Positions 3,192-18,583 of a DNA stretch of 19,663 bases are shown here, piece after piece. How positions within the stretch are numbered: the first letter of the stretch is position 1; every line of letters starts with the position of its first letter. The notes under the pieces were generated by a model. The model ran no database searches and was not told the DNA's origin. It saw nothing but the letters and a program-made list of their open reading frames with translations. A program made the position numbers and the translations under genes. This DNA comes from a virus. Taxonomy: Duplodnaviria > Heunggongvirae > Uroviricota > Caudoviricetes. The stretch lies in IMG/VR virus record IMGVR_UViG_2695420792_000006, positions 1 through 19,663 of that record. One strand, 5' to 3'.

Positions 3192-3251
3192 GGTCCTCCT
3201 GATGTATGCGGCTTGCCTTATTTAATTGCGTCATGGTTAATTTCGTTTACG

Positions 3252-3830: not shown

Positions 3831-4046
3831 TCAGGAATGCGTGTTGCTGTTAATGCCACCGGTTTCCTCCTGAGCAGGTGCTGTTATCTGATACCCCGCT
3901 CTTTCTGCCAGCCGTATGAATGTATCCATGCTGGCAATCAGCTCGCCATCGCGGACTTTGCAGACACCTGTGACTTGGCCATTTTCAATTGTCATAACGA
4001 TCTGCACTTTTTCGCGCACAACAGATACAGGGGATAAATTAGCCAT
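3831..4046 (-). CDS. Hypothetical small protein
   Basis: 71-aa ORF in the same orientation as the early-left operon, with coding-like composition. No family recognised. Confidence 0.45.
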   Translation of the reverse strand: MANLSPVSVVREKVQIVMTIENGQVTGVCKVRDGELIASMDTFIRLAERAGYQITAPAQEETGGINSNTHS

Positions 4047-4171
4047 CAGTTAATTCCTCCACTGGTATATTTTTCTTTCGCGTAATCAATAACCTCTTGA
4101 AAAAGGTTGTCTATAATTAACTTTCCGGTTTCAGTCAGGTATTCAGTATGTTGATTAATCCCGATAGCATT

Positions 4172-4405
4172 CTAGTATGCAGTGTGGATTTCGGTTTCAC
4201 CCTCCACCCGGCCCAATTCACCACGGGTAATACCTTCGAAGCGTAACAGCAACTGGTTTATAAACTGTTCAGTTATTTCTATAGTCGCAATGTTCCCATC
4301 CGGAAGGTCAACAATAAGCAGATTACCACCTGTTTTACGTTTTATTCGATGGAGTGCCGCAACAGCTATACGGCGACGATATGTATTAATGGGTTCATAT
4401 GCCAT
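4172..4405 (-). CDS. Hypothetical small protein
   Basis: 77-aa ORF in the early-left operon. No family recognised. Confidence 0.45.
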   Translation of the reverse strand: MAYEPINTYRRRIAVAALHRIKRKTGGNLLIVDLPDGNIATIEITEQFINQLLLRFEGITRGELGRVEGETEIHTAY

Positions 4406-4604
4406 TTGTTATTTCCCGTATGCTTTACGCAGAAATAAGCAGGCAATATGCATGTAATTTTCACCGTGTTGTGCAATAAGACAGGCTGTTTTGTGTGATG
4501 TCTTATGTTTTATAAAAGTCATAATAAAGGCTCCAGTGGATTAAGTGTGTGATAATCCCCGGCGATTAAGCCGTAATATATTGTTCAGCGATAATATGTT
4601 TTAT

Positions 4605-4805
4605 TTAACTGGATAGTTCTTTTTCAGTTGCTGCTTCAGCATAGCAACGTGCAAATTCAAGAACTTCATCACCTGTTCTTTTTATTGCATCGTTGTCTGA
4701 CATTTGTAATACGACAACTGCGCATAATAAATCATGGATATTGTTTGCAAAGGAATCCGGTGCCAGGCATAAGCCTTCATACTTATCATGGATATTGCCA
4801 GTCAT
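4605..4805 (-). CDS. Hypothetical small protein (66 aa)
   Basis: Internal ATG (MTGNIHDKYEG...) with an AAGGAG Shine-Dalgarno, 5 nt downstream of the stop of the tandem-HTH gene. The longer track ORF (to 4847) would overlap that gene. Confidence 0.45.
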   Translation of the reverse strand: MTGNIHDKYEGLCLAPDSFANNIHDLLCAVVVLQMSDNDAIKRTGDEVLEFARCYAEAATEKELSS

Positions 4806-4810
4806 TGTTG

Positions 4811-5482
4811 CTACTCCTTTGCTTCTGATTTTCCCGTTAACAACCACACCAGGTCACAATTAAGCGCACTGGCCAGTGGTACTATCTGATCAGCAGGAAC
4901 TTCACAGATGCCGCATTCCCAGTCGTTTATGGGGTCACTGTAGGTATGAATCATGCGGGCAAGATCAGCTTCAGTTAAGCCCAGTTTTTTACGGGCGCTT
5001 TTGATGCGTGCGCCAATACTTTCCACATGGACTTCAGGCGCATTTACGCGAATAGCTGACTCGCTGTTTTTTTCACTCAGCAGAGAAAGCGGATCGCATC
5101 CCAGGACGTTTGCCAGGGGGATAAGCATGCTGATGGTTGGTTCGTACTCTCCGCTCTCCCATTGCAGAATAATCTCTTCGTCAAGATCGAGTAGTCTGGC
5201 CAGTTCGGTGGTCGTCAAGCCGCAGGCTTCACGTTGGGTACGGATTTTTCCAAAAAAGTGACTATGCGAAACCATAGCTTTTGCCTCACATAGTTTTTCT
5301 GCAAAAATTGATGCAGTTTCTTCTGTTTTTTGCAGGGAACGCATCAGGCATCTGATTGCATTATAAACCCTCTCACTTTCTGCTCCGTTTTCTGACATGT
5401 AGGAATAGATCATTCCAAGCAGCGAGCCGCCTTCTTGTATTTGTGCTGCAATTTCATCCATCACCTTAACTGCATGCTTCAT
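4811..5482 (-). CDS. Tandem HTH (XRE-type) DNA-binding protein with unknown N-terminal domain; first gene of the pL-like operon
   Basis: 223 aa. Two XRE-like helix-turn-helix segments (TTTELARLLDLDEEIILQWESGEYEPT and LTEADLARMIHTYSDPINDWECGICEVPADQI). AGGAGG Shine-Dalgarno 4 nt upstream. A consensus sigma70-like promoter lies immediately upstream. Confidence 0.7.
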   Translation of the reverse strand: MKHAVKVMDEIAAQIQEGGSLLGMIYSYMSENGAESERVYNAIRCLMRSLQKTEETASIFAEKLCEAKAMVSHSHFFGKIRTQREACGLTTTELARLLDLDEEIILQWESGEYEPTISMLIPLANVLGCDPLSLLSEKNSESAIRVNAPEVHVESIGARIKSARKKLGLTEADLARMIHTYSDPINDWECGICEVPADQIVPLASALNCDLVWLLTGKSEAKE

Positions 5483-5507
5483 ATGAGCCTCCTGTTGTTT
5501 TAATTTT

Positions 5508-5536
5508 ACAATAGCTAAAGCGTTTGGTTATGTCAA
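5508..5536 (-). promoter_or_regulatory. pL-like promoter (-35 TTGACA, 17-bp spacer, -10 TATTGT) with overlapping operator-like motif
   Basis: Minus-strand reading gives TTGACA(17 nt)TATTGT upstream of the 223-aa gene. The 13-mer TCAATCGCTATAG (5533-5545) overlaps the -35 and recurs at 6448-6460 beside the cro-like promoter. Confidence 0.5.
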
Positions 5537-5658
5537 TCGCTATAGCTATGCATTTTGAGCAGCAAAGAACAGATTATGAGAGAAATGAGACGATACGTAG
5601 GGAGTTGAGATACAGGAAAGTAGAGCAGCTGCGCAATACAGCTGCCGGTGATGTTGAC

Positions 5659-6363
5659 TTATCCGACCCTGTTATACTGGATTGACTGATGAATGAGAAC
5701 TTTCCCCATTATGAATAGATGTTCTTCAGCTGATTCACTTATAAACCATTCCTTGTAGGCCGGATTGTCTGATATAACAGCAAGTTGCATCCCTTGCATT
5801 TGCAGGCGTTTGATATGGAAGGTGTGCCCAAAAATAAAAACATAGATACCGTCAGTTTCAAAATTTCTGACGGATACGTCGACAAACACCTGATCTCCTG
5901 CACACAGAGTAGGAGCCATGCTGTCGCCATCAACTGTTATCATCTTTATGATATTTGCTGGCCTGCTACAGAACAGACGTCTTGCGGCGTCATGTGAAAA
6001 TTCTATAGCATGGACCGTTTCTGCAAAATCTGAAACAAGGAATGTTCCTGGTCCCGCGCTGGCAGCGATATCCAGGACTTCCACACGAAAAATATCCTTA
6101 TCATTTTCCAGCGGGGAATATGATACCTGTGGTGTCGGATTGCAGGATGTGCTTTCTTCTGGGGTCATAGGACCAACACCGTACGATAGCCACTCGGGGC
6201 GCACGTTCAGGGTATTGGCTATCTCCACAACTTTCCTGGAGCCTGTGGCACCATTAACCAGTTTATTTACGCTCGATTGAGCCATGCCAACCTCTCTGGC
6301 CAGTTTTCCCTGCGAGTATCCGCGGATAGTCATAGCTAACTGTAGCCTGTCTGAAAAGCTCAT
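5659..6363 (-). CDS. cI-like prophage repressor (HTH_XRE + S24 LexA-like peptidase domain)
   Basis: N-terminal HTH (YSQGKLAREVGMAQSSVNKLVNG) and C-terminal S24-like region with the GDSM serine motif and a downstream lysine (VDGDSMAPT ... HIKRL). Start set at the ATG with an AGGAGG Shine-Dalgarno at 6368-6373 rather than the longer track ORF. Divergent from a cro-like gene. Confidence 0.85.
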   Translation of the reverse strand: MSFSDRLQLAMTIRGYSQGKLAREVGMAQSSVNKLVNGATGSRKVVEIANTLNVRPEWLSYGVGPMTPEESTSCNPTPQVSYSPLENDKDIFRVEVLDIAASAGPGTFLVSDFAETVHAIEFSHDAARRLFCSRPANIIKMITVDGDSMAPTLCAGDQVFVDVSVRNFETDGIYVFIFGHTFHIKRLQMQGMQLAVISDNPAYKEWFISESAEEHLFIMGKVLIHQSIQYNRVG

Positions 6364-6387
6364 AAGTCCTCCTTTTTCTGCCCTTTT

Positions 6388-6416
6388 AGTGTATCGCCTT
6401 AGCGATATATACACAA
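6388..6416 (-). promoter_or_regulatory. pRM-like promoter for the repressor (-35 TTGTGT, 17 bp, -10 TACACT) overlapping a palindromic operator
   Basis: Read on the minus strand. The palindrome TATCGCcttaGCGATA (6392-6407) lies in the spacer. Confidence 0.4.
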
Positions 6417-6432
6417 ACCGCTTTTCCGCACA

Positions 6433-6461
6433 TTGTAATCGCTTTGATCAATCGCTATAGT
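6433..6461 (+). promoter_or_regulatory. pR-like promoter for the cro-like gene (-35 TTGTAA, 17 bp, -10 TATAGT) with AATCGCT operator repeats in the spacer
   Basis: TTGTAA at 6433-6438, 17-nt spacer, TATAGT at 6456-6461, about 25 nt upstream of the cro-like ATG. Direct repeats AATCGCT occur at 6437-6443 and 6450-6456. Confidence 0.45.
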
Positions 6462-6486
6462 GAATGGAATCAGGTTGGAGGTCGAT

Positions 6487-6750
6487 ATGAAAAATGAAGG
6501 TATAGCCAAGGCTGTAGATATTGCGGGAAGCCAGATTGCTCTGGCTAGGCGTTGTGGTCGCGCGCAGTCAACAATTTGCGACTGGCTGAATGGGAAGAAA
6601 AAAATTTCTCCTGAATTTGTTCCGTCTCTGGTTAAGGCGGTCGATGGGAAAGTCCAGGCGTATGAATTTCGTCCTGATCTACCGGAGCTTTTCCCACACC
6701 CAAGCTTAGCGCACACAGAAGATGGAGTGTGCGAAGGAGATAAACAGTGA
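6487..6750 (+). CDS. Cro/YdaS-like HTH regulator
   Basis: ATG at 6487 with a GGAGG Shine-Dalgarno at 5-nt spacing. HTH segment (IAGSQIALARRCGRAQSTICDWLNG). Divergent from the cI-like repressor, the classic immunity-region layout. Confidence 0.7.
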   Translation: MKNEGIAKAVDIAGSQIALARRCGRAQSTICDWLNGKKKISPEFVPSLVKAVDGKVQAYEFRPDLPELFPHPSLAHTEDGVCEGDKQ

Positions 6751-7454
6751 ATACAGCAATTTTTACCGACAAAGCATCTATGACCAGCGTTGAGATTGCT
6801 GAGTTGGTTGGTAAGCGCCATGACAATGTAAAACGCACTATTGAAACATTAGCCAAAGGTGGTGTTGTCCGGTCTCCTCAAATTGAGGTTTCCGAAAGAA
6901 TCAATAACTTAGGGTTTAAAGTTCAACACGAGCATTATCTGTTTGAAGGCGAACAAGGCAAACGCGACAGCATTATTGTTGTCGCACAGCTTTGCCCTGA
7001 ATTCACCGCCCGCCTGGTAGACCGCTGGCGTGAACTGGAAGAACAGATCCGTAAGCCAATGAGCGAAATCGAAATGGTTGCCGCGATGGCGCTCGAGGCT
7101 GTTCGCCAACAAAGACGTCTTGAGCATGTGGAAGAGAAAGTCATCCACGTTACCGAAACAGTCGAGCAAATCAAAAGAGGCACCATACGCGATGGTTATG
7201 CAGGCTACCGTCAGCTGGTGGCGAAAACGGGTATGTCAGATGCGAAATGTCGCAATCTGGTGAACGCATATCAGATCCCTACTGACACCCATGAATTTAT
7301 GACGCCGGATGGATTGTTGTCTCGTCGCGCGATTGTTGCAGTAGAACCCTTCATGTCTGCTTTTCATCGCATGATGAGTGAAGCAGAACCACGGGGTACT
7401 CGCTGGTATCACCCGAAGATGGGGCTGTTCCAGGCGCTGGGCTGGCAGGGGTAA
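6747..7454 (+). CDS. Rha-family phage regulatory protein
   Basis: N-terminal Rha-type motif (MTSVEIAELVGKRHDNVKRTIETL). GTG at 6747 has an AAGGAG Shine-Dalgarno at 7-nt spacing and overlaps the cro-like stop. An alternative ATG start lies at 6780. Confidence 0.65.
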   Translation: MNTAIFTDKASMTSVEIAELVGKRHDNVKRTIETLAKGGVVRSPQIEVSERINNLGFKVQHEHYLFEGEQGKRDSIIVVAQLCPEFTARLVDRWRELEEQIRKPMSEIEMVAAMALEAVRQQRRLEHVEEKVIHVTETVEQIKRGTIRDGYAGYRQLVAKTGMSDAKCRNLVNAYQIPTDTHEFMTPDGLLSRRAIVAVEPFMSAFHRMMSEAEPRGTRWYHPKMGLFQALGWQG

Positions 7455-7473
7455 TTATGCTCACAGGTAACAC

Positions 7474-7653
7474 ATGCAAGTACTCAATCGCTGGTTCCGT
7501 GATGGAAGAGGGCGTCGCGTCCACGTTATACGCTGGGAGCCTGAAACACAGCGGGTTATTTACCTGCGTGATGGTTATCCGGATGAGTGCTTCAGCCCAC
7601 TATGGTTGTTTCGTCGTGATTTTGTTGAGTGCGAAGCGCCACCAGCATATTGA
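7474..7653 (+). CDS. Small hypothetical protein (59 aa) in an alternate frame to the track ORF
   Basis: My translation of ATG 7474 gives MQVLNRWFRDGRGRRVHVIRWEPETQRVIYLRDGYPDECFSPLWLFRRDFVECEAPPAY, which looks protein-like. It falls below the track's length cut-off. The overlapping N-terminal 157 aa of the 340-aa track ORF look non-native. Confidence 0.35.
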   Translation: MQVLNRWFRDGRGRRVHVIRWEPETQRVIYLRDGYPDECFSPLWLFRRDFVECEAPPAY

Positions 7654-7927
7654 TTCTGCAATTCCGGGACGTTACACTGCTCAGGCACCTTATAAAGCGG
7701 GTGCCGGGATTGGCGTCCTGAAACTTACAGAAGAGCATAACCGCGCTCATGCGGTTTTTTCATGTCATGAGCATTGCTACGCCCAAATTATGGTGGGGCG
7801 TGCAGGGGCATCGCAAGATGCGCCGGGTTCTTCTGTGACCGGTTACGCCAACCCTGTACGTCTCACCACCTCTGTGATTGGCGTCCCATGTGGTGAGTGT
7901 TTTAAACTCACAGAAGGGGCTGTCATC

Positions 7928-8479
7928 ATGACTACTCTCCCAACCATCGCTCAACCTGAACTTTGCATTGTTGCTGGCAAAGTGGTTACTTCTTCTCTGT
8001 CTGTTGCCTGTTATTTCCGCAAACAACACAAAAATGTCATTCAAAAAATTGCGTCTCTTGAATGCTCTGCCGAATTTACTGAGCTGAATTTTCAGCCCAG
8101 TGAATACACCGACGCATCAGGCCGCAAACTCCCTTGTTACCAAATCACCCGCGACGGTTTTGCATTTCTTGCTATGGGTTTCACGGGTAAACGTGCTGCC
8201 CGGTTCAAAGAAGCATACATCAATGCCTTTAACCAGATGGAGAGGTGCTTATCAGGAGTTGGTGCGGCTGATATGCCATCTGTCGCACAAAACGCCAGAG
8301 GCGTATACCTGCATTTGCGAGAAATCCACCAAATCTGGACAAGCCAGCTTTATCCCATGCTTAAGGCTGTTGAATCTCCGCTGGCTAGCAAACTGTACGA
8401 CCGTGTAGGTGATGCTGTTTTTGGTGCTGCACTTGTTGATTCCAGACTGAACGGTTCTGACAAGGAGGCGCACCCATGA
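7928..8479 (+). CDS. Rha-family phage regulatory protein (second copy)
   Basis: Rha-type core from MTTLPTIAQPELCIVAGKVVTSSLSVACYFRKQHKNVIQKI ... TRDGFAFLAMGFTGKRAARFKEAYINAFNQME. ATG at 7928 preceded by GAAGGGG. The upstream 7457-7927 part of the track ORF is probably not part of this protein. Confidence 0.6.
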   Translation: MTTLPTIAQPELCIVAGKVVTSSLSVACYFRKQHKNVIQKIASLECSAEFTELNFQPSEYTDASGRKLPCYQITRDGFAFLAMGFTGKRAARFKEAYINAFNQMERCLSGVGAADMPSVAQNARGVYLHLREIHQIWTSQLYPMLKAVESPLASKLYDRVGDAVFGAALVDSRLNGSDKEAHP

Positions 8480-8709
8480 TTCGCCGCGTCGTTAGTTCCC
8501 TGTATCACCGATACAACCACTGCCCCCGTGTGGGGCAGTGGTTCACCACCAGCAACGGTCACGTTCTGCGGGTTTGCCTGGTCAATACAGAAAGCCAGAA
8601 GGTTGTCTGCCAGGTTCAGGGATGTACTCATACCCTGAGTTATCCGCTGGTGGCGTTTCAGTCCGGAAAAATGTTTAAACGCCTGGGAGGTGGCTATGCG
8701 TCCGTCTGA
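8476..8709 (+). CDS. Small Cys/His-containing hypothetical protein
   Basis: 77 aa. Perfect AAGGAGG Shine-Dalgarno at 7-nt spacing. ATGA overlap with the preceding Rha gene stop. Confidence 0.45.
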   Translation: MIRRVVSSLYHRYNHCPRVGQWFTTSNGHVLRVCLVNTESQKVVCQVQGCTHTLSYPLVAFQSGKMFKRLGGGYASV

Positions 8710-9589
8710 TCTTCTGCTCGATTTTGGACATCCGGTTGCTTATTACCCTGGGCTCGTTAAATACATGGGAAGTCCGCACGCTGTTATTTTCTTTGGTCAG
8801 ATTTTTTACTGGCAGGATAAAGCACATGCAGCGGAAGGCGTACATAAAACGCGTGAAGAGATACAACACGAAACAGGACTTACATTTGAACAACAGGCTG
8901 TAGCGCGTAAGTATCTTGTGTCCAGAGGCATTTTGGTTGAAACCAACAAGCGTCTTGAGCACAAAATGTTCTACCGTATAGATTGTGAGCGCCTTAATGA
9001 AATTATCAATGAAAACAATCAGTTTTCCCGAAATGGGGAAACCCGTTTTCGGGAAACTGTAAAACCCAATTTCGCGGAGGAGGGAAAGCCTTCACCGCGG
9101 ACACGGGAAACCCCTCGCCGCGGAGAAGGGAAAACCAATTTCGATCTTACAGAGAATACAACAGAGATTACTTCAGAGAATACTACAGAGAGTAAAAACA
9201 CTATTGGCGCATCCGCTGACGCGTCTGCACCAGCACGTTCTGCCCGACAGGAATATTCACCGGAATTTGAACAGGCCTGGCAGGAATATCCCAAACGTGC
9301 TGGTGGTAATTCCAAGTCAGCAGCCTTCAAAGCCTGGAAAGCCCGTATCAGGGAAGGTGTGACACCCGAAACCATGCTCAACGGTGTGAAACGCTATGCC
9401 GCCTGGGTGCGTGTCTCAGGAAATACCGGCACCCAGTTCGTGAAGCAGGCATCGACGTTCTTTGGCCCCGATCGGCACTTTGACGAATCCTGGCAACAGT
9501 CAGCAGCTCCCGGAGGTGGGCGGGGCAAAAGCCTCCCGATCTCGGGATTCAGTGAACAGGACTACGGCTCAACGAACTTCAACTGGTGA
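8696..9589 (+). CDS. Phage replication initiation protein (O-like replisome organiser) carrying internal iteron-like repeats
   Basis: ATG at 8696 with GGAGG 5 nt upstream. Lies directly upstream of the DnaC-like and DnaB-like genes. Contains a repeat-rich internal DNA segment (9023-9190), as the lambda O gene contains ori. Confidence 0.6.
   Translation: MRPSDLLLDFGHPVAYYPGLVKYMGSPHAVIFFGQIFYWQDKAHAAEGVHKTREEIQHETGLTFEQQAVARKYLVSRGILVETNKRLEHKMFYRIDCERLNEIINENNQFSRNGETRFRETVKPNFAEEGKPSPRTRETPRRGEGKTNFDLTENTTEITSENTTESKNTIGASADASAPARSARQEYSPEFEQAWQEYPKRAGGNSKSAAFKAWKARIREGVTPETMLNGVKRYAAWVRVSGNTGTQFVKQASTFFGPDRHFDESWQQSAAPGGGRGKSLPISGFSEQDYGSTNFNW
9023..9190. repeat. Iteron-like repeats (CGGGAAA/GGGAAAnC, about 6 copies) followed by an AT-rich tandem 24-bp repeat; candidate origin of replication
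   Basis: Copies at about 9023-9030 (inverted), 9035-9044, 9050-9057, 9082-9088, 9104-9111 and 9128-9135. Then cagagaatacaacagag / cagagaatactacagag at 9150-9190. Confidence 0.45.
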
Positions 9590-9606
9590 TTTTGTGGGGT
9601 GTGAAA

Positions 9607-10497
9607 ATGATTAATTTCCTGAACAAACAACACATGCAACACGACAAAGCGCAATTACTCAACCGCAGTGCGGAGCTGGAGGAGGAGATGCAGTTTGCCC
9701 GTGCCGGGAAGCGTCCGTGGCGCTGTGAGCACTGGCTGGCAAGCGATGAGACTGCAGAGTGTGAGAAGCACGGAAAATATACTCGTCTGGTGTTGAAAGG
9801 GCCAGATATTCGCGGAGAAACCATCAAACGGGTATCCGGATGTCCGCGCTGCATCGCAGAAGAACTGGATCACGTGCATGACGAATTACGCGCCCTGAAG
9901 GTTCGTGAATTACTCGATCAGGCCGGTATTGCCCGCCGCTTTGAGAACTGCGAGTTTGAGAACTATCAGGCTGTGAATGCCGGGGCTCAGCGGAATCTTG
10001 ATGCCTGCCAGCGTTATGTCGATGCCTGGAAGGATCACCTCGCGGCGGGTACCAGCATGATCATGATTGGCAATTGCGGTACCGGGAAAAATCACCTGGC
10101 TGTATCAATGGCAAAAAATATTATTCGCCACCACCTGGCGACCGTCGAAATTACGGATGTTATGCGACTGACCCGCGCTGTGAAAAATACATGGCGTCAC
10201 AATTCTGAACGCACTGAAGATGAAGTTATTGACCATTTTGTATCACTGGACCTGCTCATCATTGATGAAGTCGGTGTTCAGTTTGGCACGCCTGCCGAGA
10301 TAACCATCCTGCAGGAAATCATCAACGCGCGTTACGAAAGTATTCTGCCAACAATTCTGATCAGCAACCTGACGTTTGACCAGCTTAAGGAGTCCATTGG
10401 TGAGCGAATTGTAGATCGCGTTACTGACGGCGGGCGTAACCGCCTGGTGTTTGGCTGGGAGAGCTACCGGGCAAATATCGGAGGTGTTGCCGCATGA
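9607..10497 (+). CDS. DnaC-like helicase loader (AAA+ ATPase, IstB/DnaC family) with N-terminal Cys4 zinc-binding region
   Basis: Walker A motif GNCGTGKNHLAVS, Walker B motif LLIIDEVG, and an N-terminal four-Cys cluster (CEHW...CEKHG...CPRC). Start may be the GTG at 9586 (track) or the ATG at 9607. Confidence 0.8.
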   Translation: MINFLNKQHMQHDKAQLLNRSAELEEEMQFARAGKRPWRCEHWLASDETAECEKHGKYTRLVLKGPDIRGETIKRVSGCPRCIAEELDHVHDELRALKVRELLDQAGIARRFENCEFENYQAVNAGAQRNLDACQRYVDAWKDHLAAGTSMIMIGNCGTGKNHLAVSMAKNIIRHHLATVEITDVMRLTRAVKNTWRHNSERTEDEVIDHFVSLDLLIIDEVGVQFGTPAEITILQEIINARYESILPTILISNLTFDQLKESIGERIVDRVTDGGRNRLVFGWESYRANIGGVAA

Positions 10498-11894
10498 CCA
10501 GCCAGAACAACCCGGCATGGCGTAACGATGACCTGGAAGGTGCGGTGATTGGCGCGTTTTTTCTGCGTGGGGCTGATCCGGAAGTGATGGATATTCTGGC
10601 CACGCTTCCGGCGGATGTATTTTTCGTGCGTCAGTACCGGGATATTTACGCGGGGATTTGCAGACAGGCCCGCGTATCCGGCGTCATTGACCCCGTGCTG
10701 CTGTGCAATGAGATGCCGGAACTTGCCCCGGTGATTACCGACACCGGGCGCAAAACCTGGGTGAAGTCTTCACTGGAGCACTATGTTGCAGCGCTGCGAC
10801 GCAATGCCGCACTGCGCGATGCAGAAAAAACACTGACTGAAGCATTACAGAATTTACGTGATGCACATACCTGCGAAGCGGCAGAAGATGCCCTGAAGGA
10901 TGCGCAGAACATGATGGCCTCACTGTCGACCGGAAAGGGCGTCATTCAGCCGGTTCACATTGATGATGTCCTTCCGGAAGTGGTGGGCCGTGTTGAATGC
11001 CGGAATCAGGGACTGGAGAAATCCAGGGCGCTGATGACCGGTATTGATGAACTGGACGCAAAAACGGGCGGTATGGAGCCCGGAGACCTGGTATTCATTG
11101 CCGCCCGTCCTTCGATGGGGAAAACAGAACTTGCGCTGGACATCATCGACAAGGTGACTGAGCAGGGGCATGGCGTGCTTCTGTTCACCATGGAGATGGC
11201 GAACATCCAGATTGGTGAACGTATGGTGTCTGCAGCAGGGGGAATGCCGGTATCCCGTCTTAAGTCTGTTGCCCGTTTTGAAGATGAAGACTGGGCGCGT
11301 TTCTCACAGGGCGTGGGACGAATGACGGGGCGTAATATCTGGATGGTGGACCAGGCAAATCTGACCATTGATGAGATATGTGCAACCACGAGGTACCACC
11401 GGATGAAGCATCCGGAAACGGCGCTGGTGGTGGTCGATTACCTCGGCCTGATTAAAACCCGCAGCACGGGGCGTCACGACCTTGCGGTGGGGGAAATCTC
11501 AAAGGGACTTAAAAGCCTGGCAAAATCCGGCGGTTTTCCGCTGATTGCTCTGAGCCAGCTCTCCCGCGGCGTGGAATCCAGACCCAATAAACGTCCCATG
11601 AACTCAGACCTGAAAAACTCCGGGGAAATCGAGGCTGATGCCGACATCATTCTGATGCTTTACAGGGATGAGGTGTATAACCCGGATACACAGGCGAGAG
11701 GCATAGCAGAAATCAACATCACGAAACAGCGTAATGGCACGCTCGGGACCATTTACCGGCGTTTTCATAACGGACATTTTCTGCCTGTGGACCAGGAGAG
11801 TGCCCGGGTTCTTTCCACACCCATGACGCCGGGCAATCCGCGCAGATACAGCAATAACCGCATGTCGGGCAGTAAAGCGGAGCGTTTATTTTGA
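10494..11894 (+). CDS. DnaB-family replicative DNA helicase
   Basis: DnaB-type motifs GIDELDAKTGGMEPGDLVFIAARPSMGKTELALDI (Walker A), VVVDYLGLI, and LSQLSR(G)VE. ATGA overlap with the loader gene. Confidence 0.85.
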   Translation: MTSQNNPAWRNDDLEGAVIGAFFLRGADPEVMDILATLPADVFFVRQYRDIYAGICRQARVSGVIDPVLLCNEMPELAPVITDTGRKTWVKSSLEHYVAALRRNAALRDAEKTLTEALQNLRDAHTCEAAEDALKDAQNMMASLSTGKGVIQPVHIDDVLPEVVGRVECRNQGLEKSRALMTGIDELDAKTGGMEPGDLVFIAARPSMGKTELALDIIDKVTEQGHGVLLFTMEMANIQIGERMVSAAGGMPVSRLKSVARFEDEDWARFSQGVGRMTGRNIWMVDQANLTIDEICATTRYHRMKHPETALVVVDYLGLIKTRSTGRHDLAVGEISKGLKSLAKSGGFPLIALSQLSRGVESRPNKRPMNSDLKNSGEIEADADIILMLYRDEVYNPDTQARGIAEINITKQRNGTLGTIYRRFHNGHFLPVDQESARVLSTPMTPGNPRRYSNNRMSGSKAERLF

Positions 11895-12148
11895 ATAACA
11901 GAACAGCCACTGTTTCACCGGAACAACTTCGTCGCCAGGCGCAGGAGATGCTTCGTTGTGCTGAACAGATGGAAAAAATGAGCGTGGCAAAGGATACGCT
12001 CCGCAAGCAGCTTACTCCGGCGCTTCGTGATCTGCTGCAGGCAAAACACCGCACACAAAAGGCGGTGGATGAGCTGGTGGATTGCGTGGCGGAACTGGAA
12101 GGCAAGGTAAGCCAGTTTGAAACTCTGGTGAAGGAGTTTACTGCGTGA
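11891..12148 (+). CDS. Small coiled-coil hypothetical protein (start uncertain, track start is TTG)
   Basis: 85-aa ORF overlapping the helicase stop. Charged, helical-looking sequence. No family recognised. Confidence 0.35.
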   Translation: MNNRTATVSPEQLRRQAQEMLRCAEQMEKMSVAKDTLRKQLTPALRDLLQAKHRTQKAVDELVDCVAELEGKVSQFETLVKEFTA

Positions 12149-12193
12149 TGGCTGAATTTTTTCTCCTGTGTTCATGCAATATCGTTCGCTGAG

Positions 12194-13189
12194 GTGACCG
12201 TGAGAGCATTGTTGACTCCTGAAATTGCCCCGCGAATGGGGATTGTATTGTTCAGACCCGGTTCAGAGCTGATGCCCCTGTTTATGCAGGGGCGTGTCCT
12301 GCTGGAGCCTGAGCCGGAACGTTATTCATCTTTCGCCAGTGGTGCCGTTCCGGCGGCATCACAACCGCTGGCGGATGATCCTGCCGTTCGGGCCGTGTTC
12401 CGCAATGAGGCAGTGATCCGTCGTGCTGGTGGCGTGGAATGTCTTGAAAGCTGGTTACTTCGTGAAAAAGGCTGCCAGTGGCTTCATTCCGACTGGCACA
12501 GCGAGAACATGACCACAATGCGACACGCGCCGGGCGCAATCCGTCTGTGCTGGCACTGCGATAACCAGCTGCGCGATCAGTTCACGGAACGGCTGGAATC
12601 AATGGCAACGGATAACTGTGCCCGCTGGGTGTTGTCTGTTGTGCGTCGGGATCTCGGTTTTGATGACAGTCACGTTGTGACAATGCCGGAACTGTGCTGG
12701 TGGCTGGTTCGTAATAATCTGGCGGATGCCTTACCGGAAAGCGCAGCCCGTAAGGCACTGAGATTACCGAATCCTGTTGTGCCGTCTGTCACCCGGGAAA
12801 GTGACCTTGTGCCTTCGGTTCCTGCCACCAGCATCATCCAGGATAAGGCGAAAAAGGTGCTGGCGCTGAAAGTGGATCCGGAGTCGCCGGAGTCTTTTAT
12901 GTTACGCCCAAAACGTCGCCGCTGGGTTAATGAAAAGTACACGCGCTGGGTTAAGACACAGCCGTGCGCATGTTGTGGAAAGCCTGCTGATGATCCCCAC
13001 CACCTGATAGGCCACGGTCAGGGGGGAATGGGTACAAAAGCGCATGACCTCTTTGTGTTGCCTTTGTGCAGAAAGCATCACGACGAGCTGCATGCGGATA
13101 CCGTGGCATTTGAAGAGAAGTATGGCTCCCAGCTGGAGCTGATATTTCGTTTTATCGATCGCGCGCTGGCAACTGGCGTGCTGGCCTGA
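12194..13189 (+). CDS. DUF968-like phage protein with C-terminal HNH-like zinc-finger motif
   Basis: C-terminus CACCGKPADDPHHLIGHGQGGMGTKAHDLFVLPLCRKHHDELH matches an HNH-type CxxC...HH...CxxxHH pattern. Lies immediately upstream of Q, as ydfU-like genes do in E. coli cryptic prophages (recollection). Track start is GTG; the true start is unresolved. Confidence 0.55.
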   Translation: MTVRALLTPEIAPRMGIVLFRPGSELMPLFMQGRVLLEPEPERYSSFASGAVPAASQPLADDPAVRAVFRNEAVIRRAGGVECLESWLLREKGCQWLHSDWHSENMTTMRHAPGAIRLCWHCDNQLRDQFTERLESMATDNCARWVLSVVRRDLGFDDSHVVTMPELCWWLVRNNLADALPESAARKALRLPNPVVPSVTRESDLVPSVPATSIIQDKAKKVLALKVDPESPESFMLRPKRRRWVNEKYTRWVKTQPCACCGKPADDPHHLIGHGQGGMGTKAHDLFVLPLCRKHHDELHADTVAFEEKYGSQLELIFRFIDRALATGVLA

Positions 13190-13206
13190 TTTTGTGGATA
13201 AAGTTT

Positions 13207-13572
13207 ATGCGTGATATTCAGATGGTTCTGGATCGTTGGGGTGCATGGGCGGCGAGTGATAGTTCTGGGGTAGACTATTCGCCTATAGCTGCTGGGTTTA
13301 AAGGGCTTCTTCCCTATACAAGCAAAACACGTCAGGCTTGTTCAGATAGTGATGCATTAATTATTGAAGGTTGTCTTGCTCGTCTAAAGCAAAAAAGACC
13401 TGAAGAACACTCGCTTCTTGTTGCCCATTACCTATACGGTATCTCTAAAAGAAAGCTCGCCAAAGCTCGTAAAAAGGATGAGAAACTAATACGCATTGAG
13501 ATACAGATGGCTGAGGGTTTTGTTGAAGGCTGTCTCTCAATGCTTGATCTTTGTCTGGAAATGGACCAATAG
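13207..13572 (+). CDS. Late-gene antiterminator Q (QuuD/phage 21-type Q family)
   Basis: MRDIQMVLDRWGAWAA...GFKGLLP...EGCLARLK...LEMD closely resembles the roughly 125-aa Q antiterminators of E. coli lambdoid prophages as I recall them. ATG at 13207 preferred over the TTG track start. Confidence 0.8.
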   Translation: MRDIQMVLDRWGAWAASDSSGVDYSPIAAGFKGLLPYTSKTRQACSDSDALIIEGCLARLKQKRPEEHSLLVAHYLYGISKRKLAKARKKDEKLIRIEIQMAEGFVEGCLSMLDLCLEMDQ

Positions 13573-13583
13573 ACTACCAGAAT

Positions 13584-13620
13584 AGAAACTGCCGCTCAGC
13601 TTTGCGGATCGGCAGTTTCT
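13584..13620. repeat. Perfect 11-bp inverted repeat (AGAAACTGCCG / CGGCAGTTTCT, 15-nt loop) between convergent genes
   Basis: Lies between the Q stop and the stop of the minus-strand 140-aa gene, whose 3' end it overlaps. No U-tract on either side. Confidence 0.5.
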
Positions 13621-14018
13621 GATGGTGTAATGTTACGCGCAGATGTTTCGAGTATAGATTCCCTTCCGATTGATACCAAAATTTCGATTGTTCTTGCTTT
13701 AGCCTGCATCAATGTTGATTTTATTTCAGGACTTAAGTGGTCAGATCGTAACTGCTTCTCAATCTCAGCCAAATCACGCTTGCATTTTGCTCTTTTGGCT
13801 GCGTCCTCTGGAGATTCGAAACCATGCCTCGAAATAAACCAATTCATGACGTAAGTTAAAGTTGCCGCAACACCCGGTACCAATGCGTAGGCTACAGTTC
13901 GCCACACGCTATTAGGGTCGGTTAAAATCGCGCTAACAAGAACACTTAGAATTGCTCCCCAGCCACCAGTTGAAAGGGTAGCTTTTCCTGTACTTAGACC
14001 TTTAGTTTGAGAATTCAT
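13596..14018 (-). CDS. Cassette gene 3: 2-TM membrane protein with cytoplasmic coiled-coil tail
   Basis: 140 aa. Hydrophobic helices WGAILSVLVSAIL and VAYALVPGVAATLTYVMNWFI, followed by a charged C-terminal region. Start overlaps the stop of the upstream gene. Confidence 0.6.
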   Translation of the reverse strand: MNSQTKGLSTGKATLSTGGWGAILSVLVSAILTDPNSVWRTVAYALVPGVAATLTYVMNWFISRHGFESPEDAAKRAKCKRDLAEIEKQLRSDHLSPEIKSTLMQAKARTIEILVSIGRESILETSARNITPSETADPQS

Positions 14019-14284
14019 TTTCGTTTTGAATTCTCCGCAATTGCCTCTTCAATGAGGGTTGTTAGCATTTTTCCCTTTTTACTTGGAACTTTTATTACTA
14101 GCGTCTTAGTCACTCCGGATTCTTCATCGTGATATCGGAATTCGAAGACTTTTGTAGGGAATAGTCGACGCCAAAGCAAGGCTGACGCTGAATAGCAAAA
14201 ACGACTAAAGGCAGGGATGATCATTATCACCCCAATCCAGAAGATCAGTTGTGCTATCTGCATGTTCAGTGTCACTTTTGTCAA
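14015..14284 (-). CDS. Cassette gene 2: small membrane protein (1-2 TM)
   Basis: 89 aa. Hydrophobic N-terminus (IAQLIFWIGVIMIIPAF) and a Lys-rich soluble tail. 4-nt overlaps with both neighbouring genes. Confidence 0.55.
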   Translation of the reverse strand: MTKVTLNMQIAQLIFWIGVIMIIPAFSRFCYSASALLWRRLFPTKVFEFRYHDEESGVTKTLVIKVPSKKGKMLTTLIEEAIAENSKRK

Positions 14285-15150
14285 GCCTCAGCAGGGCGTT
14301 TTCGTTTTACTTTGGTTATAGCATACTTGGTTGTGGCATTTCGCGCAGTGAAAGTTTTTATAGTTTTTAGCTCAACAACAAACAAATCTTCTTTTGTAAA
14401 ACTGATGATTCCATTTTGAACTTGGTGTATAAACAACTGATCTTCAAATGTAACAGCATGCTCCTCGCCTAAATAATCGATTCTCCAACCCTTTGTACCC
14501 TCGAAGTTGATCTGTACGAATCTAACATTGACTTCTTCTACAGACTCTTCTTTTTCAAGTAGTGTACCTCTAGGCAGCGGTTTGATCTCTTCAGTTTCAC
14601 TTCCTTCAAGACGAACGACTTCTTCGCCTTCATCATTTAGCACCTTAAATACTGCACCTTGTTTGCCGTCTAATGGTGCACGAACTACATTCACAAGGGC
14701 ATCACGGACTTCAGGATCTGTTACTAACTTAGCCACTGAGTCATGGCAAACAATTTCTTCCCCTTCAAGTTCAAGAACAGATTCTTCTGTTCCTGCCCGT
14801 TTTGTTACCGAAATTACTTTCTTGCTGCCCAGTTGGCGGATTAGTGATAATGCTGGAGCTCCAATAGCAGCCCCGGCTATCCCTGTTAGGCCAATCACTT
14901 TTGCGACGTCGACGGCATGAGGAACAAGCTCCATCATCGTATAGGATACGCCGAGTGATCCCGCTTCTGCTGGATTAGTAACCATTAACTTAACGGTTTG
15001 TTGACCGTCATTAAGTCTTTTATCAGCTGCTGATATTAAATCTGCCATCGAACCTATGGAGATGCTTAATGTTTTGGCATCAATTTTATGCTGTGCTAAT
15101 TCGTTATCCTCTGCATCGTAGAAGATCTGAAAAGAAGTTGTTTTAGTCAC
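14281..15150 (-). CDS. Cassette gene 1: 289-aa hypothetical protein with a central hydrophobic/Gly-Ala segment and acidic stretches
   Basis: No family recognised. Central hydrophobic segment VAKVIGLTGIAGAAIGAPALSLI and acidic runs (LELEGEEIV, EGSETEE). Track start is GTG with a weak Shine-Dalgarno, so the start is uncertain. Locally AT-rich. Confidence 0.55.
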   Translation of the reverse strand: MTKTTSFQIFYDAEDNELAQHKIDAKTLSISIGSMADLISAADKRLNDGQQTVKLMVTNPAEAGSLGVSYTMMELVPHAVDVAKVIGLTGIAGAAIGAPALSLIRQLGSKKVISVTKRAGTEESVLELEGEEIVCHDSVAKLVTDPEVRDALVNVVRAPLDGKQGAVFKVLNDEGEEVVRLEGSETEEIKPLPRGTLLEKEESVEEVNVRFVQINFEGTKGWRIDYLGEEHAVTFEDQLFIHQVQNGIISFTKEDLFVVELKTIKTFTARNATTKYAITKVKRKRPAEA

Positions 15151-15394
15151 TCTTTGCTCGCTATGTCTTGACTTTTTTCCATAAAATACCTTTTTTGGGT
15201 ATAAAAAACATTATCGCGGTCCGCAAAAATTGCGTTACTGTGTTAAGAGTGGTTACTTCGCCACACAGCTTAAACCCGCCGTCGAGCGGTTTTTTTGTAC
15301 CTGTAAACCTGGTGCAGTACAGTAAACACGCTGGTGGCGGTGAATACCTGTCTTTCAGCTTGCTGGCTTTTTCGACAAGAGTTATTGGTATGTC

Positions 15395-15622
15395 ATGTCA
15401 ACCAGAAGGGAAAAAGACATGCTAAAACAGCAAGATATGACAGAAACCGCCGCCGCAGTCCTTCATTTCTTACCTGCTGACAAGTGGGTAACGCCACGCA
15501 TGATGACGAGAACTACAGGAGTAAGCGAAGCCCGGTGCCAGTTAATACTGACTCAGTTAGTTCTGGCGGGTCTGGCGAAGGATAACGGCGGGTACGGGAA
15601 TAAATTCAGACGCTGCCAGTAA
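15395..15622 (+). CDS. Small hypothetical protein, possibly winged-helix DNA-binding (alternative start ATG 15419)
   Basis: 75-aa ORF upstream of the methyltransferase. The internal ATG at 15419 has an AGAAGGGA Shine-Dalgarno. Helix-rich segment VSEARCQLILTQLVLAGLAKDNGG. Confidence 0.4.
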   Translation: MSTRREKDMLKQQDMTETAAAVLHFLPADKWVTPRMMTRTTGVSEARCQLILTQLVLAGLAKDNGGYGNKFRRCQ

Positions 15623-15772
15623 TGGCGGTTTCCTGCTGTGAAAATGGGCGGCTGGTGGGTGTTGGTAGCACCTGCCAGCCATTCGCTCATGCTTACTGGT
15701 CACAAGCGAACCATGGCCCACTGCTTTAGCGCAAAAGCAGAGTGAGCCTACCAGAGTTACGCTTACTGATCC

Positions 15773-16830
15773 ATGAAAAATACTGTAAAAATAAACAGTG
15801 TTGATTTAATCAACGCTGATTGCCTGCATTTTATTCAGTCCCTGCCTGATGATTCCATTGACCTGATTGTTACCGATCCGCCGTACTTCAAGGTGAAACC
15901 CAACGGCTGGGACAATCAGTGGAAAGGGGACGAAGATTACCTTAAGTGGCTGGACCACTGTCTTGCGCAGTTCTGGCGGGTGCTGAAACCTGCAGGAAGT
16001 CTATACCTGTTCTGTGGGCATCGCCTGGCATCTGACACCGAAATCATGATGCGTGAGCGGTTTAACGTGCTGAACCATATCATCTGGGCAAAGCCGTCCG
16101 GACGCTGGAACGGGTGTAACAAGGAAAGCCTGCGGGCGCATTTTCCGGCCACAGAGCGCATTCTGTTCGCGGAACATTATCAGGGGCCGTATCGCCCGAA
16201 AGATGATGGCTGTGAGGCGAAGGGCAGGGCACTGAAACAGCATGTGATGGCCCCGCTGATTGCTTACTTTCGTGATGCGCGCGCTGCCCTGGGGATAACG
16301 GCAAAACAGATTGCAGATGCCACAGGAAAGAAAAACATGGTGTCGCACTGGTTCAGTGCCAGTCAGTGGCAGCTGCCGAACGAAAGCGATTATCTGAAAT
16401 TACAGGCCCTGTTTGCCCGGGTGGCAGAAGAGAAGCATCAGCGCGGTGAACTGGAATGGCCCCACCACCAGCTGGTGGATACGTATACGTCACTGAACCG
16501 GCAGTATGTGGAGCTGCAGAGTGAATATAAGCATCTGCGGCGGTATTTTGGTGTGACGGCGCAGGTGCCGTACACGGATGTGTGGACATATAAACCGGTG
16601 CAGTTCTATCCCGGGAAACATCCGTGCGAAAAACCGGCAGAAATGCTGCAGCAGATAATCAGCGCAAGCAGTCGTCCGGGTGACCTGGTTGCAGATTTTT
16701 TATGGGCTCAGGTTCAATGGTAAAAGCGGCACTGGCGCTCGGGCGTCGTGCGATTGGCGTTGAACTGGAGGCCGGACGTTTTGAGCAGACAGTCAGGGAA
16801 GTTCAGGATTTCATCGTTCGAAACGGATGA
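15773..16830 (+). pseudogene. DNA methyltransferase (N6-adenine/N4-cytosine class, DPPY motif) interrupted by a -1 frameshift in a T6 run
   Basis: Motif IV DPPY (IVTDPPYF). The reading frame stops at 16723 (ADFLWAQVQW*). Adding one T to the run at 16696-16701 would read ADFFMGSGSMVKAALALGRRAIGVELEAGRFEQTVREVQDFIVRNG*, restoring the FxGxG SAM-binding motif and ending at 16830. Confidence 0.65.
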
Positions 16831-16870
16831 GATTGCAGAATTAATTACGGACCGTTATTATCCGGCTCCC

Positions 16871-16946
16871 GGCCCTTTAGCTCAGTGGTGAGAGCGAGCG
16901 ACTCATAATCGCCAGGTCGCTGGTTCAAATCCAGCAAGGGCCACCA
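16871..16946 (+). tRNA. tRNA with CAT anticodon, Ile2 (lysidine)-type (ileZ-like); elongator Met not excluded
   Basis: Manual cloverleaf: acceptor GGCCCTT/AAGGGCC, D-arm GCTC-AGTGGTGA-GAGC, anticodon loop CTCATAA, T-loop TTCAAAT, 3' CCA encoded. Resembles E. coli ileX-type sequence as recalled. Confidence 0.8.
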
Positions 16947-17046
16947 TCACAAACCGCCATTAGCTTATCAGGAAGAGCAGACGACACCATAACAGGGTTG
17001 TTGGTGCGGGGGCGGGTCCCCGATGGCGGTCCATTATCGGTATTCT

Positions 17047-17123
17047 GCGTTGTTAGCTCAGCCGGACAGAGCAATTGCCTTCTAAGCAATCGGTCAGTGG
17101 TTCGACTCCACTACAACGCGCCA
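17047..17123 (+). tRNA. tRNA-Arg (anticodon TCT, reads AGA)
   Basis: Manual cloverleaf: acceptor GCGTTGT/ACAACGC, anticodon stem ATTGC/GCAAT, loop CTTCTAA, T-loop TTCGACT, CCA encoded. Confidence 0.8.
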
Positions 17124-17136
17124 CACTTATTTTCCA

Positions 17137-17160
17137 GGCTCGCTTCGGCGGGCCTTTTTT
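17137..17160 (+). terminator. Rho-independent terminator after the tRNA pair
   Basis: GGCTCGC-TTCG-GCGGGCC stem-loop (one G-U wobble) followed by TTTTTT. Confidence 0.6.
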
Positions 17161-17292
17161 GTATCTGCGCCACGCCCGGCGCATATCAACCACAGAGCCT
17201 TTCGGGGGTGAGCTTACGGAGTGGTCAGTGTGACTTTCTCTGTGGGCAGATCGCTCCCGGGCGTTGGCTCACCCACCCAAAGGAACGTCACG

Positions 17293-17724
17293 ATGTTTGG
17301 AATCTTCAAAAAGAAAACCCGCAGAGCGGCAGCGGAAATTAAAAAGTTTGAGAAACGCGATCTGGCACAGGCGGTGATTAACGCTGCATACCTGGTGGCC
17401 TATGCAGATGGTGAATGCGAGGCATCCGAGAAAGCGAAGATCGAACAGGTCTTACGTAATCAGCCTGCGTTGTCTGCGTTTACCTCGGAAATTAATGCGA
17501 TTAGCGCAACCATTATCGGTCAGCTGGATACGAACTTTAAAATTGGTCGTCGTGCGGCGTTACGTGAGATCGAGGATGTGAAACACGATACGCGTGAAGC
17601 GGAAGATGTGCTGGATGTGGCGGTGGCCATTGCGGAGGCAGACGGCGAAATTGAGCCGGAAGAGCGCAAGGTGCTGGAAGAGATTGCCGGTGTTCTGGGG
17701 CTTCGTCTGGAGAATCACCTGTGA
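17293..17724 (+). CDS. TerB-like (tellurite-resistance TerB family) protein
   Basis: 143 aa. ATG at 17293 with an AAGGA Shine-Dalgarno. Sequence AVINAAYLVAYADGECEASEKAKIEQVL ... DVAVAIAEADGEIEPEERKVLEEIAGVLGL matches the TerB helical repeat pattern as I recall it. Confidence 0.6.
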   Translation: MFGIFKKKTRRAAAEIKKFEKRDLAQAVINAAYLVAYADGECEASEKAKIEQVLRNQPALSAFTSEINAISATIIGQLDTNFKIGRRAALREIEDVKHDTREAEDVLDVAVAIAEADGEIEPEERKVLEEIAGVLGLRLENHL

Positions 17725-17852
17725 CGGTAAAACTGCGCCTGGCTGTGGCTGCACTCCTGCTGTTTCTGGTGGTGATGGTGGATTTCACCAGCAGAATCAT
17801 GTCGGTGCTGGCGGATGGGGGGCTGGTCTGCGGCATTGTGGTATTGCTGTAG
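17721..17852 (+). CDS. Putative small hydrophobic peptide (43 aa, GTG start) coupled to the TerB-like gene
   Basis: GTG overlaps the TerB stop (GTGA). GGAGAA Shine-Dalgarno 6 nt upstream. Translation VTVKLRLAVAALLLFLVVMVDFTSRIMSVLADGGLVCGIVVLL has two hydrophobic segments. Not in the supplied track (short, non-ATG start). Confidence 0.3.
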   Translation: MTVKLRLAVAALLLFLVVMVDFTSRIMSVLADGGLVCGIVVLL

Positions 17853-18202
17853 CCGGTGATAAAAAGAAACAGCCTGCATAATGCTTGATTTTTTTGTTTG
17901 CTGTTTATTAAAAACACTTCTGCATGGTGAATCCCCCTGTGCGGTGGGGCAATCAGCAAGAAGGAATATGGGGTAATCGCGGATTCAGGTGCTGATACTG
18001 AATTCACCGGGAGGCACCCGGCACCATGCTTTGCCACAAAATTGTTGTTTCTGTTTTTCTCAAATTATCATCATTATCCCTTTATTTCCGGCTGCGCATG
18101 GCGTGGCCTTTTTTTTACGACCAGCCACTGGCAGATGACCATCCTGTGATTTGATTCCGCTTCCGGCTTTTTAACTCTGTTCCTGTACACGGGAGAAATT
18201 CG

Positions 18203-18583
18203 ATGTCGATTAAACATTATGATGTTGTCAGGGCGGCGTCGCCGTCAGACCTTGCGGAAAAGCTGACACAAAAACTGAAGGAGGGGTGGCAGCCATTTGG
18301 CAGCCCGGTGGCCATCACGCCTTATACTCTGATGCAGGCCATTGCGGCGGAAGGTGATGTCACCACACCTGTGTTGGTGAAGCCGTCGGATGGAGAAGGC
18401 ACAGTAATCAGCGCCAGCCGGGTGTTCTCATCGGTGATAGATATGCCGGCAGGGCGGGGTCATGTCACCCTGACGTTTAATGTGTCGTCGGCCGGTGCGA
18501 ACAACTGGACGCCGACAACGTACATCAGTGATTTACTGGTTGTGGTCATGAAAAAATCCACGGCAGGGATCAGTATCAGCTGA
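18203..18583 (+). CDS. Hypothetical phage protein (N-terminus resembles small phage-associated DUF-type domains)
   Basis: 126-aa ORF with upstream GGGAGAAAT ribosome-binding region. N-terminus [33 protein letters not shown]. Followed by a strong terminator. Confidence 0.5.

Follow-up and report, generated by a model that had tools for sequence, protein, structure and literature searches.

Several described systems resemble a pair of small genes, tciA and tciB, that lies in a 19,663-nucleotide stretch of tailed-phage DNA (IMG/VR record IMGVR_UViG_2695420792_000006; the whole stretch is referred to below as the window). By position, one is the stx slot of Shiga toxin (Stx)-converting lambdoid phages, which has the same left flank as the pair in the window (Q, methylase, ileZ/arg tRNAs) and the same right flank (STnc100/EcOnc27 small RNA (sRNA), nanS-p esterase), but which carries stx2AB (~1370 bp) where the window has tciAB and a leader (~730 bp) and no toxin. 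The sRNA has been described downstream of stx2B (PMC12711010; bioRxiv 10.64898/2026.05.13.724894). We show here that the window carries a tciA-tciB cassette in this cargo slot of the late operon, with the phage tRNAs on one side and the STnc100 sRNA and esterase gene on the other, and that the pair is not new but is the already catalogued tciA/tciB accessory module of tailed phages.

In phage P1, a TerB-family TciA with 42% identity to that of the window is followed directly by a 54-residue DUF3927 protein, TciB (53% identity), and the module lies, as in the window, beside phage tRNA genes that include a tRNA(CAU). The P1 module differs in having a third small gene, tciC, with no equivalent in the window, in being without the conserved leader (45% identity, no covariance-model match) and in belonging to the C1-controlled ban operon, whereas that of the window belongs to a Q-dependent late operon. 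TerB of the terZABCDEF operons (IncHI2 plasmid R478 and the E. coli O157 island; structure 2JXU) is of the same fold and family as TciA, the two matching over nearly the full length with both DG...E motifs kept in TciA, and in both settings the next gene encodes a membrane protein, which in the ter operons is TerC. Unlike the ter operons, the window has no TerC, TerD, TerE or TerZ, and in place of the multi-pass TerC the partner of TciA is a two-segment peptide of 55 residues. TciA can also be likened to DjlA and to the TerB-domain proteins of Shango, Bunzi and Dionysus, in which a TerB-type domain lies at or near the inner membrane. DjlA combines a membrane helix, a TerB-like domain and a J domain, the TerB-like domain sitting behind its own membrane helix according to the literature, whereas TciA has no J domain and its membrane segment is a separate gene; Shango, Bunzi and Dionysus differ in that TciA is without an ATPase, helicase or pore-forming partner. 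"Membrane surveillance" has been proposed for the TerB domain (literature including bioRxiv 10.1101/2025.09.30.679545).

The tciA-tciB cassette occupies the stx cargo slot

The region between the phage tRNAs and the esterase contains the following elements.

16871-16946, + strand: tRNA(CAU), an ileZ-like tRNA-Ile2 (ARAGORN; Rfam tRNA, 72.5 bits; tRNA-Ile in the Prokaryotic Genome Annotation Pipeline (PGAP) for the identical sequence)
17047-17123, + strand: tRNA-Arg(UCU) (ARAGORN, Rfam, PGAP)
17136-17161, + strand: intrinsic-terminator-like hairpin (17136-17155) and T run 3' of tRNA-Arg, at the left edge of the cassette (terminator scan)
17162-17292, + strand: tciA leader (conservation, minimum free energy (MFE), covariation, covariance model)
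17293-17724, + strand: tciA, ATG to TGA, encoding a TerB-fold protein of 143 residues (Pfam, PHROG and PDB matches)
17721-17852, + strand: tciB (DUF3927), 43-codon allele, GTG to TAG, the ancestral frame running to 17888 (Pfam, PHROG)
17893-18073, + strand: STnc100-family sRNA, EcOnc27/PasD-like (Rfam RF02076, 102.8 bits, E 8e-22)
18090-18108, + strand: second intrinsic-terminator-like hairpin, closing the tciAB-sRNA unit (terminator scan)

A first-pass annotation of the window, made from the sequence without database searches, had taken the tRNA(CAU)/Arg(UCU) pair after Q and a methyltransferase as the arrangement that precedes stx, and the same order is indeed seen in the Stx2a phage AP012536, which reads DUF968 gene, Q, reverse-strand genes, methylase, ileZ, argN, argO, stx2A, stx2B and esterase. 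In pairwise BLAST the homology to the Stx2a phage breaks on the left at window position 17171, stx2A starting 43 nt past the equivalent point, and resumes at 17904, which corresponds to 87 nt after stx2B; against the Stx2a and empty-site phages together, the left homology ends at 17163-17171. Between the same two points the empty-site phage PhiR49_2 has 46 bp. The interval 17172-17902 of the window contains the leader, tciA and tciB only, and no stx A or B subunit gene was found between the tRNAs and the esterase, as had also been noted in the first pass. Because the break points match and PhiR49_2 is nearly empty there, the ~730 bp of leader, tciA and tciB takes the place of stx2AB as cargo within the same borders. 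In the manner of a moron, tciAB is a facultative insert, related phages having the same neighboring genes without it (46 bp in PhiR49_2, stx2AB in Stx2a_1447). The earlier view of a pair in a toxin-moron slot holds for the slot; the pair itself is no unrecognized oddity there, being catalogued and common in E. coli prophages. The stx slot of lambdoid phages is an interchangeable cargo space, and this prophage holds a common non-toxin alternative.

To follow alleles and flanks we used 79 close relatives from a scan of IMG/VR viral contigs, which are 97-100% relatives and are informative on alleles, not on diversity. The tRNAs lie upstream of tciA in 61 of the 79, the STnc100 sRNA is present in all 58 relatives with enough flank, and the esterase N-terminus follows in 55 of these. 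Directly 3' of tciB, this sRNA is the element that has also been described after stx2B (EcOnc27, PasD-like), and the 3' end of the tciAB transcript may be its source. Between the two tRNAs, a spacer of 100 nt (16947-17046) has the position of argN, tRNA-Arg(UCG), in relatives with three tRNAs and may be a remnant of that gene.

TciA is a TerB-family protein

Profile searches bore out the assignment of the first gene to TerB. TciA matched Pfam TerB (PF05099) with an E-value of 2.9e-16 (60.2 bits, cut-off 24.4), residues 26-138 aligning to profile positions 2-109 of 118, and its full length matched phrog_632 (E 1.7e-69). Residues 14-137 also matched the solved Klebsiella TerB structure 2JXU (E 4.4e-8). 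An AlphaFold2 model built with 24 homologues is all-helical with a predicted local distance difference test score of 88.6, and in a Foldseek search of the PDB its top match was the TerB-like 2H5N with a probability of 1.0 and a TM-score of 0.55-0.62, albeit with a weak E-value of 0.012; we rate the sequence match to 2JXU as firmer evidence for TerB than this structural match. TciA alignments show little or no variation in the paired acidic DG...E motifs, D39-G40...E46 and D117-G118...E124, of a kind proposed to bind metal. The protein is soluble, with an overall isoelectric point of 5.1, and has an acidic body and a basic N-terminal helix, 9 of the first 22 residues being basic and 2 acidic. 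Its ratio of nonsynonymous to synonymous polymorphism (pN/pS, Nei-Gojobori) of 0.045 indicates strong purifying selection, and the identical protein sequence is encoded on 985 contigs. A weak partial match to the NCBIfam model of DjlA was seen (E 1e-6). Searches of NCBIfam and PADLOC returned nothing specific to the tciAB pair; among PADLOC models, TciA gave only a weak partial match to PDC-S48 (E 0.0035) and TciB gave none.

tciB is a coding gene that is truncated in this prophage

The start of tciB overlaps the stop of tciA by 4 nt (GTGA), and the gene has its own Shine-Dalgarno sequence, GGAG at 17709-17712, 8 nt 5' of the GTG at 17721, as had been read in the first pass. Its product matched Pfam DUF3927 (PF13064; E 2.3e-11, 43.9 bits, cut-off 25, profile positions 2-41 of 53) and phrog_1470, "TciB-like" (E 5.3e-21, profile positions 1-43 of 54), a family of proteins of 51-60 residues with two hydrophobic segments and basic ends. 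Short, hydrophobic, GTG-initiated open reading frames (ORFs) do arise by chance in GC-rich DNA, and tciA might then be the sole gene; that reading, to which we give practically no credence, is already refuted by the Pfam and PHROG matches, by the 669 clusters (90% identity grouping) that match our own hidden Markov model (HMM) of the DUF3927/TciB family, by a frame-specific substitution pattern and by the conserved position of the ORF beside TerB in unrelated phages. Over 19 alleles, pN/pS was 0.26 in the tciB frame as opposed to 1.09 and 2.15 in the other two frames, the variable sites were distributed 14/8/24 by codon position, and the GTGA overlap with tciA was present in 79 of the 79 close relatives. 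The two genes are positionally coupled and co-conserved, and both are under purifying selection.

A tblastn search of phage records with the 43-residue peptide, the check first suggested, returned only four partial hits, owing to its short length and the low-complexity filter, and conservation was established instead from protein-cluster searches, ORF extraction and our HMM. The first-pass annotation had named an unconserved or noncoding small ORF and a failed TerB profile as the findings that would speak against it; both checks were run, and neither was found. What did not stand in its description of a GTG-initiated ORF overlapping the TerB stop was the length, as 43 codons is not the natural one: tciB has 54-55 codons in 74 of the 79 close relatives and 43 in none. 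Where the relatives have TGG (Trp-44, codon 44) the window has TAG (17850-17852), past which the old frame encodes PVIKRNSLHNA and runs to 17888; the TciB proteins of the relatives end in ...LLWPVIKRNSLHNA or ...FPL[VL]KK... Among eleven aligned TciB proteins from widely differing phages, Pro-45 and Lys-48 are the only invariant residues, and both lie beyond the stop and are lost in the 43-residue allele, which has neither the 51-60-residue length nor the C-terminal [W/F]PxxK motif of the family. The tciB of the window is a rare nonsense allele of a 55-codon gene, its exact form being found on 28 contigs, whereas two full-length siblings from its cluster are on 297 and 98.

As the nonsense codon takes away the [W/F]PxxK tail and the prophage no longer has its genes for lysis and morphogenesis, we take the module of this strain to be probably impaired or idle. 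A stronger statement, that the pair is a decaying remnant in a defective prophage, would be compatible with any ancestral function, and we regard it as possible without favoring it. It would account for the removal of the invariant Pro-45 and Lys-48, for frameshifts at a G run in other tciB alleles, for a frameshifted methylase and for an esterase N-terminus fused by deletion to the end of the tail-tip gene J, but tciA is intact and identical on many contigs, the same tciB allele lies within the otherwise complete prophage of strains 22-245 and 22-250, and both hydrophobic segments of TciB remain. The G run consists of six G residues (17817-17822), coincides with the frameshift point of several other alleles (P0050, P0051 and P0098) and looks like a slippage hot-spot.

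The module recurs in unrelated phages

For sequences identical to those of the window, PGAP uses the names "tellurite resistance TerB family protein" and "DUF3927 family protein"; phage records use tciA and tciB, and the pair is also in Pfam and PHROGs. Of 5426 complete E. coli genomes, 664 (~1 in 8) have at least 80% of the stretch from the tRNAs to the sRNA (16840-18200), and 131 phage records contain a TciA-like protein. In lambdoid phages of E. coli and Klebsiella and in P1, the distance from the TerB stop to a DUF3927 gene is -4 to +4 nt. The same adjacency (4 nt or less) is found in the SSU5-like pJN2-26, the N4-like FSL SP-058 and Pollock, the Erwinia jumbo phage ChrisDB, Pantoea LIET2 and Pseudomonas nickie, in prophages of Klebsiella variicola, Enterobacter, Salmonella and Pantoea, and in a P2/186-like E. 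coli prophage. The range of the module thus extends from P1 to N4-like and jumbo phages, about one in eight complete E. coli genomes carry it, and its putative functions gain in interest with the TerB domains that are now being found in anti-phage systems.

Phage tRNA genes lie within ~1 kb of tciAB in the window, in the 61 relatives noted above, in JLK-2012, P1, ChrisDB, one Klebsiella phage and nickie; in 11 other contexts, in phages or prophages, there are none so close. A functional link and the sharing of cargo hot-spots would explain this proximity equally well. In phage 434 (locus L007, 2112-3344) a DUF3927 TciB is encoded between Q and the esterase with no TerB gene; its neighbors are a 247-residue membrane protein without a Pfam match on the 5' side and a further small membrane protein on the 3' side. 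Two fused TerB-DUF3927 proteins, P0124 and P0186, were considered as Rosetta-stone evidence for a partnership and rejected, as their linkers reveal them to be frameshift products.

A conserved leader RNA precedes tciA

The most novel finding is not in the gene pair itself but directly next to it: a leader of ~130 nt (17162-17292) separates the terminator from the tciA ATG, has a covariance-model match at 17181-17295 and is not present in the Stx2 and empty-site phages. It retains 79-88% nucleotide identity to the leaders of cassettes whose tciA genes share 53-56% nucleotide and 42-45% protein identity with that of the window, and it is recognizable in lytic Erwinia and Salmonella jumbo phages. 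Covariance-model matches of 65-133 bits were obtained upstream of every lambdoid and jumbo-phage tciA tested, and no Rfam family matched the leader. Its MFE has a z-score of -3.46 relative to shuffled sequences. The elements of the leader are the following.

17167-17182, + strand: hairpin
17190-17197 (CCACAGAG) with 17238-17245 (CUCUGUGG), + strand: helix a:a' (obtained repeatedly with RNAalifold; compensatory changes)
17206-17213 (GGGUGAGC) with 17267-17274 (GCUCACCC), + strand: helix c:c', crossing a:a'
17279-17285, + strand: Shine-Dalgarno sequence

Because the helices are ordered a, c, a', c', the predicted fold is an H-type pseudoknot, and covariation supports it. Using a covariance model built without c:c', we found diverged copies of the leader before Ant/Bro-like genes just after Rz in three phages, the leader-related matches being listed at L001 25212-25331, L091 4996-5096 and L116 5038-5161. 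These copies keep both helices by means of other sequences, for example CCCGAG:CUCGGG and AAGCUGAGCC:GGCUCAACUU. In an alignment that includes them, pairing is kept in 92.6% of cells and both partners change in 10 of 16 pairs, as against a mean of 2.3 in shuffles, none of 500 of which reached the observed value, and pairing of 41-56% in slid controls, figures to be read with the sequences being related, the structure being derived from the same sequences and the diverged copies being only three. A nested helix, GAGCC:GGCUC, is compatible with the sequences but was rejected in favor of a:a' and c:c', as covariation does not support it (its value was reached in 158 of 500 shuffles). An invariant CCUUU (17198-17202) is complementary to AAAGG (17279-17283) in the Shine-Dalgarno sequence and could mask the ribosome binding site of tciA; neither side of this candidate pairing varies.

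When genome contigs were searched with a 20-nt pattern from the leader, 10 loci were found, of which 6 have extended leader similarity; tciA follows directly in 5 of these and one ends at the edge of the locus. The other 4 show little match beyond the pattern and look like chance occurrences. We tentatively suggest, with rather less than even confidence, that the ~115 nt of 17181-17292 represent an undescribed class of pseudoknotted cis-acting RNA that heads accessory genes of phage late operons and may gate their translation, forming with tciAB a conserved, regulated membrane-associated module of lytic infection. If confirmed, the leader would offer a handle on how phages control the cargo genes of their late transcripts, including the stx-neighboring region of enterohemorrhagic E. 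coli prophages.

Expression and possible function of the module

Lytic-phase expression is most likely because no promoter-like site lies upstream of tciA, because the lambdoid cassette is always between Q and the lysis genes, because the P1 and P2-like copies are in repressor-controlled early operons (downstream of the C1-controlled ban promoters in P1, in an early operon in the P2-like prophage) and because strictly lytic phages also carry tciAB. In P1, a preprint reports altered expression of tciA/B/C in the course of lytic P1vir infection. The first of these points comes from a simple consensus scan of the + strand, in which no sigma-70-like promoter was seen between the terminator at 17136-17155 and the tciA ATG. 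The best explanation of the locus as a whole, which we hold to be reasonably probable, is that the pair forms a membrane-tethered TerB module expressed in the lytic phase, of which the copy here is probably impaired. The cassette would be transcribed within the Q-antiterminated late transcript, and tciA and tciB would be translationally coupled and act as one unit, TciB keeping the TerB domain of TciA at the cytoplasmic face of the inner membrane as its anchor or partner, a role suggested by analogy with TerB-TerC and DjlA. The module would act during lytic growth, in membrane or ion homeostasis or in the exclusion of other phages or colicins, and would not be a constitutive lysogenic-conversion gene. 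As to its physiological role, membrane/ion homeostasis, phage or colicin exclusion and interference with TerB-based host defenses are guesses.

The first-pass annotation had implied a stress-resistance moron of the lysogen, and a lysogen-expressed conversion gene with a phenotype like that of ter (resistance to tellurite or colicins, inhibition of phages) does draw on the classic cargo slot, on the terminator-like hairpins that bracket the unit (17136-17155 and 18090-18108), on the homology of TciA to ter-operon TerB, and on the retention of the tRNA-to-sRNA stretch in so many E. coli genomes under strong purifying selection. We nevertheless consider it unlikely, since the consensus scan shows no promoter-like site, the carriers include strictly lytic phages, other copies lie in repressor-controlled or early operons such as the C1-repressed ban operon of P1, and terC, terD and terE are not in the window. 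Nor does the gene keep the company of terC, terD, terE, terZ and terA, its neighbors being tRNAs, tciB, the sRNA and an esterase fragment, and a lone phage terB has been argued not to confer tellurite resistance (PMC8421299). A counter-defense or decoy role, in which the phage module would disrupt host TerB-based membrane sensors, takes its appeal from the TerB domains of Shango, Bunzi and Dionysus (PMC10952713; bioRxiv 10.1101/2025.09.30.679545) and from the spread of tciAB over many lytic and temperate phage types, as is often the case with anti-defense genes; being purely analogical, and with the weak partial PDC-S48 match as the only similarity of the pair to a PADLOC model, it seems to us very improbable.

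Several points weigh against the membrane-tethered module that we prefer. The physical partnership of TciA and TciB is putative and rests on analogy, and the pair is not inseparable: the TerB genes of Pseudomonas AF and Ebordelon have a different, one-segment small partner, that of Paracoccus Pyei1 has an unrelated hydrophobic peptide, that of Vibrio K480 has no small partner, and phage 434 has TciB without TerB. The only fused TerB-DUF3927 proteins found were the frameshift products. The names tciA and tciB in P1 were given "by homology" only, and we found no experimental work in the literature on the function of any tciA or tciB. In P1, tciA/B/C were non-essential in a CRISPR interference screen (PMC10695390) and are lost in about half of one P1 subgroup (PMC9603915). 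A simple consensus scan could miss weak or non-sigma-70 promoters. As for impairment of the copy in the window, the 43-residue TciB, with both hydrophobic segments retained and 28 contigs carrying it, may still work.

The surrounding prophage

The window is a lambdoid prophage adjoining yecE/yecN, and its positions 1-18416 are colinear with the prophage of E. coli strain 22-245 at 100% identity. Upstream of the tRNAs it contains the following genes.

13192-13572, + strand: antiterminator Q (PF06530, E 1.9e-52)
13596-15150, - strand: three reverse-strand genes between Q and the methylase
15773-16830, + strand: DNA methylase/methyltransferase PF01555 (Pfam; frameshifted according to PGAP)

The methyltransferase is split into ORFs at 15773-16723 and 16702-16830, and it is the identical gene that PGAP flags as frameshifted. 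Downstream of the sRNA, the ORF at 18203-18583 (+ strand, 126 residues) is a fusion that begins with the N-terminal DUF1737 of the nanS-p esterase and ends with the ~60 C-terminal residues of the tail-tip protein J. The deletion, with its junction at 18416/18417, took the body of the esterase, the lysis cassette and almost every morphogenesis gene; the junction was found in no complete E. coli genome of the collection searched and is present in the draft contig CYEH01000019.1 (GCA_001284685.2). The stem of the hairpin at 17136-17161 shows compensatory changes.

The largest of the reverse-strand genes (14281-15150, - strand) encodes a LAPAL-motif protein that matches the PADLOC candidate PDC-S42 (E 8.8e-33). 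At the position of window 13596-15150 the Stx2a phage has two different reverse-strand genes, and the interval between Q and the methylase therefore looks like a second cargo slot. Farther upstream, Rfam matches on the + strand place an isrK Hfq-binding RNA (7685-7761, 61 bits) beside a C4 antisense RNA (7786-7873, 80 bits), upstream of or inside the ORF 7457-8479 and near Rha-family regulator genes, a region that looks like a C4-antirepressor immunity module of the P1/P7 type.

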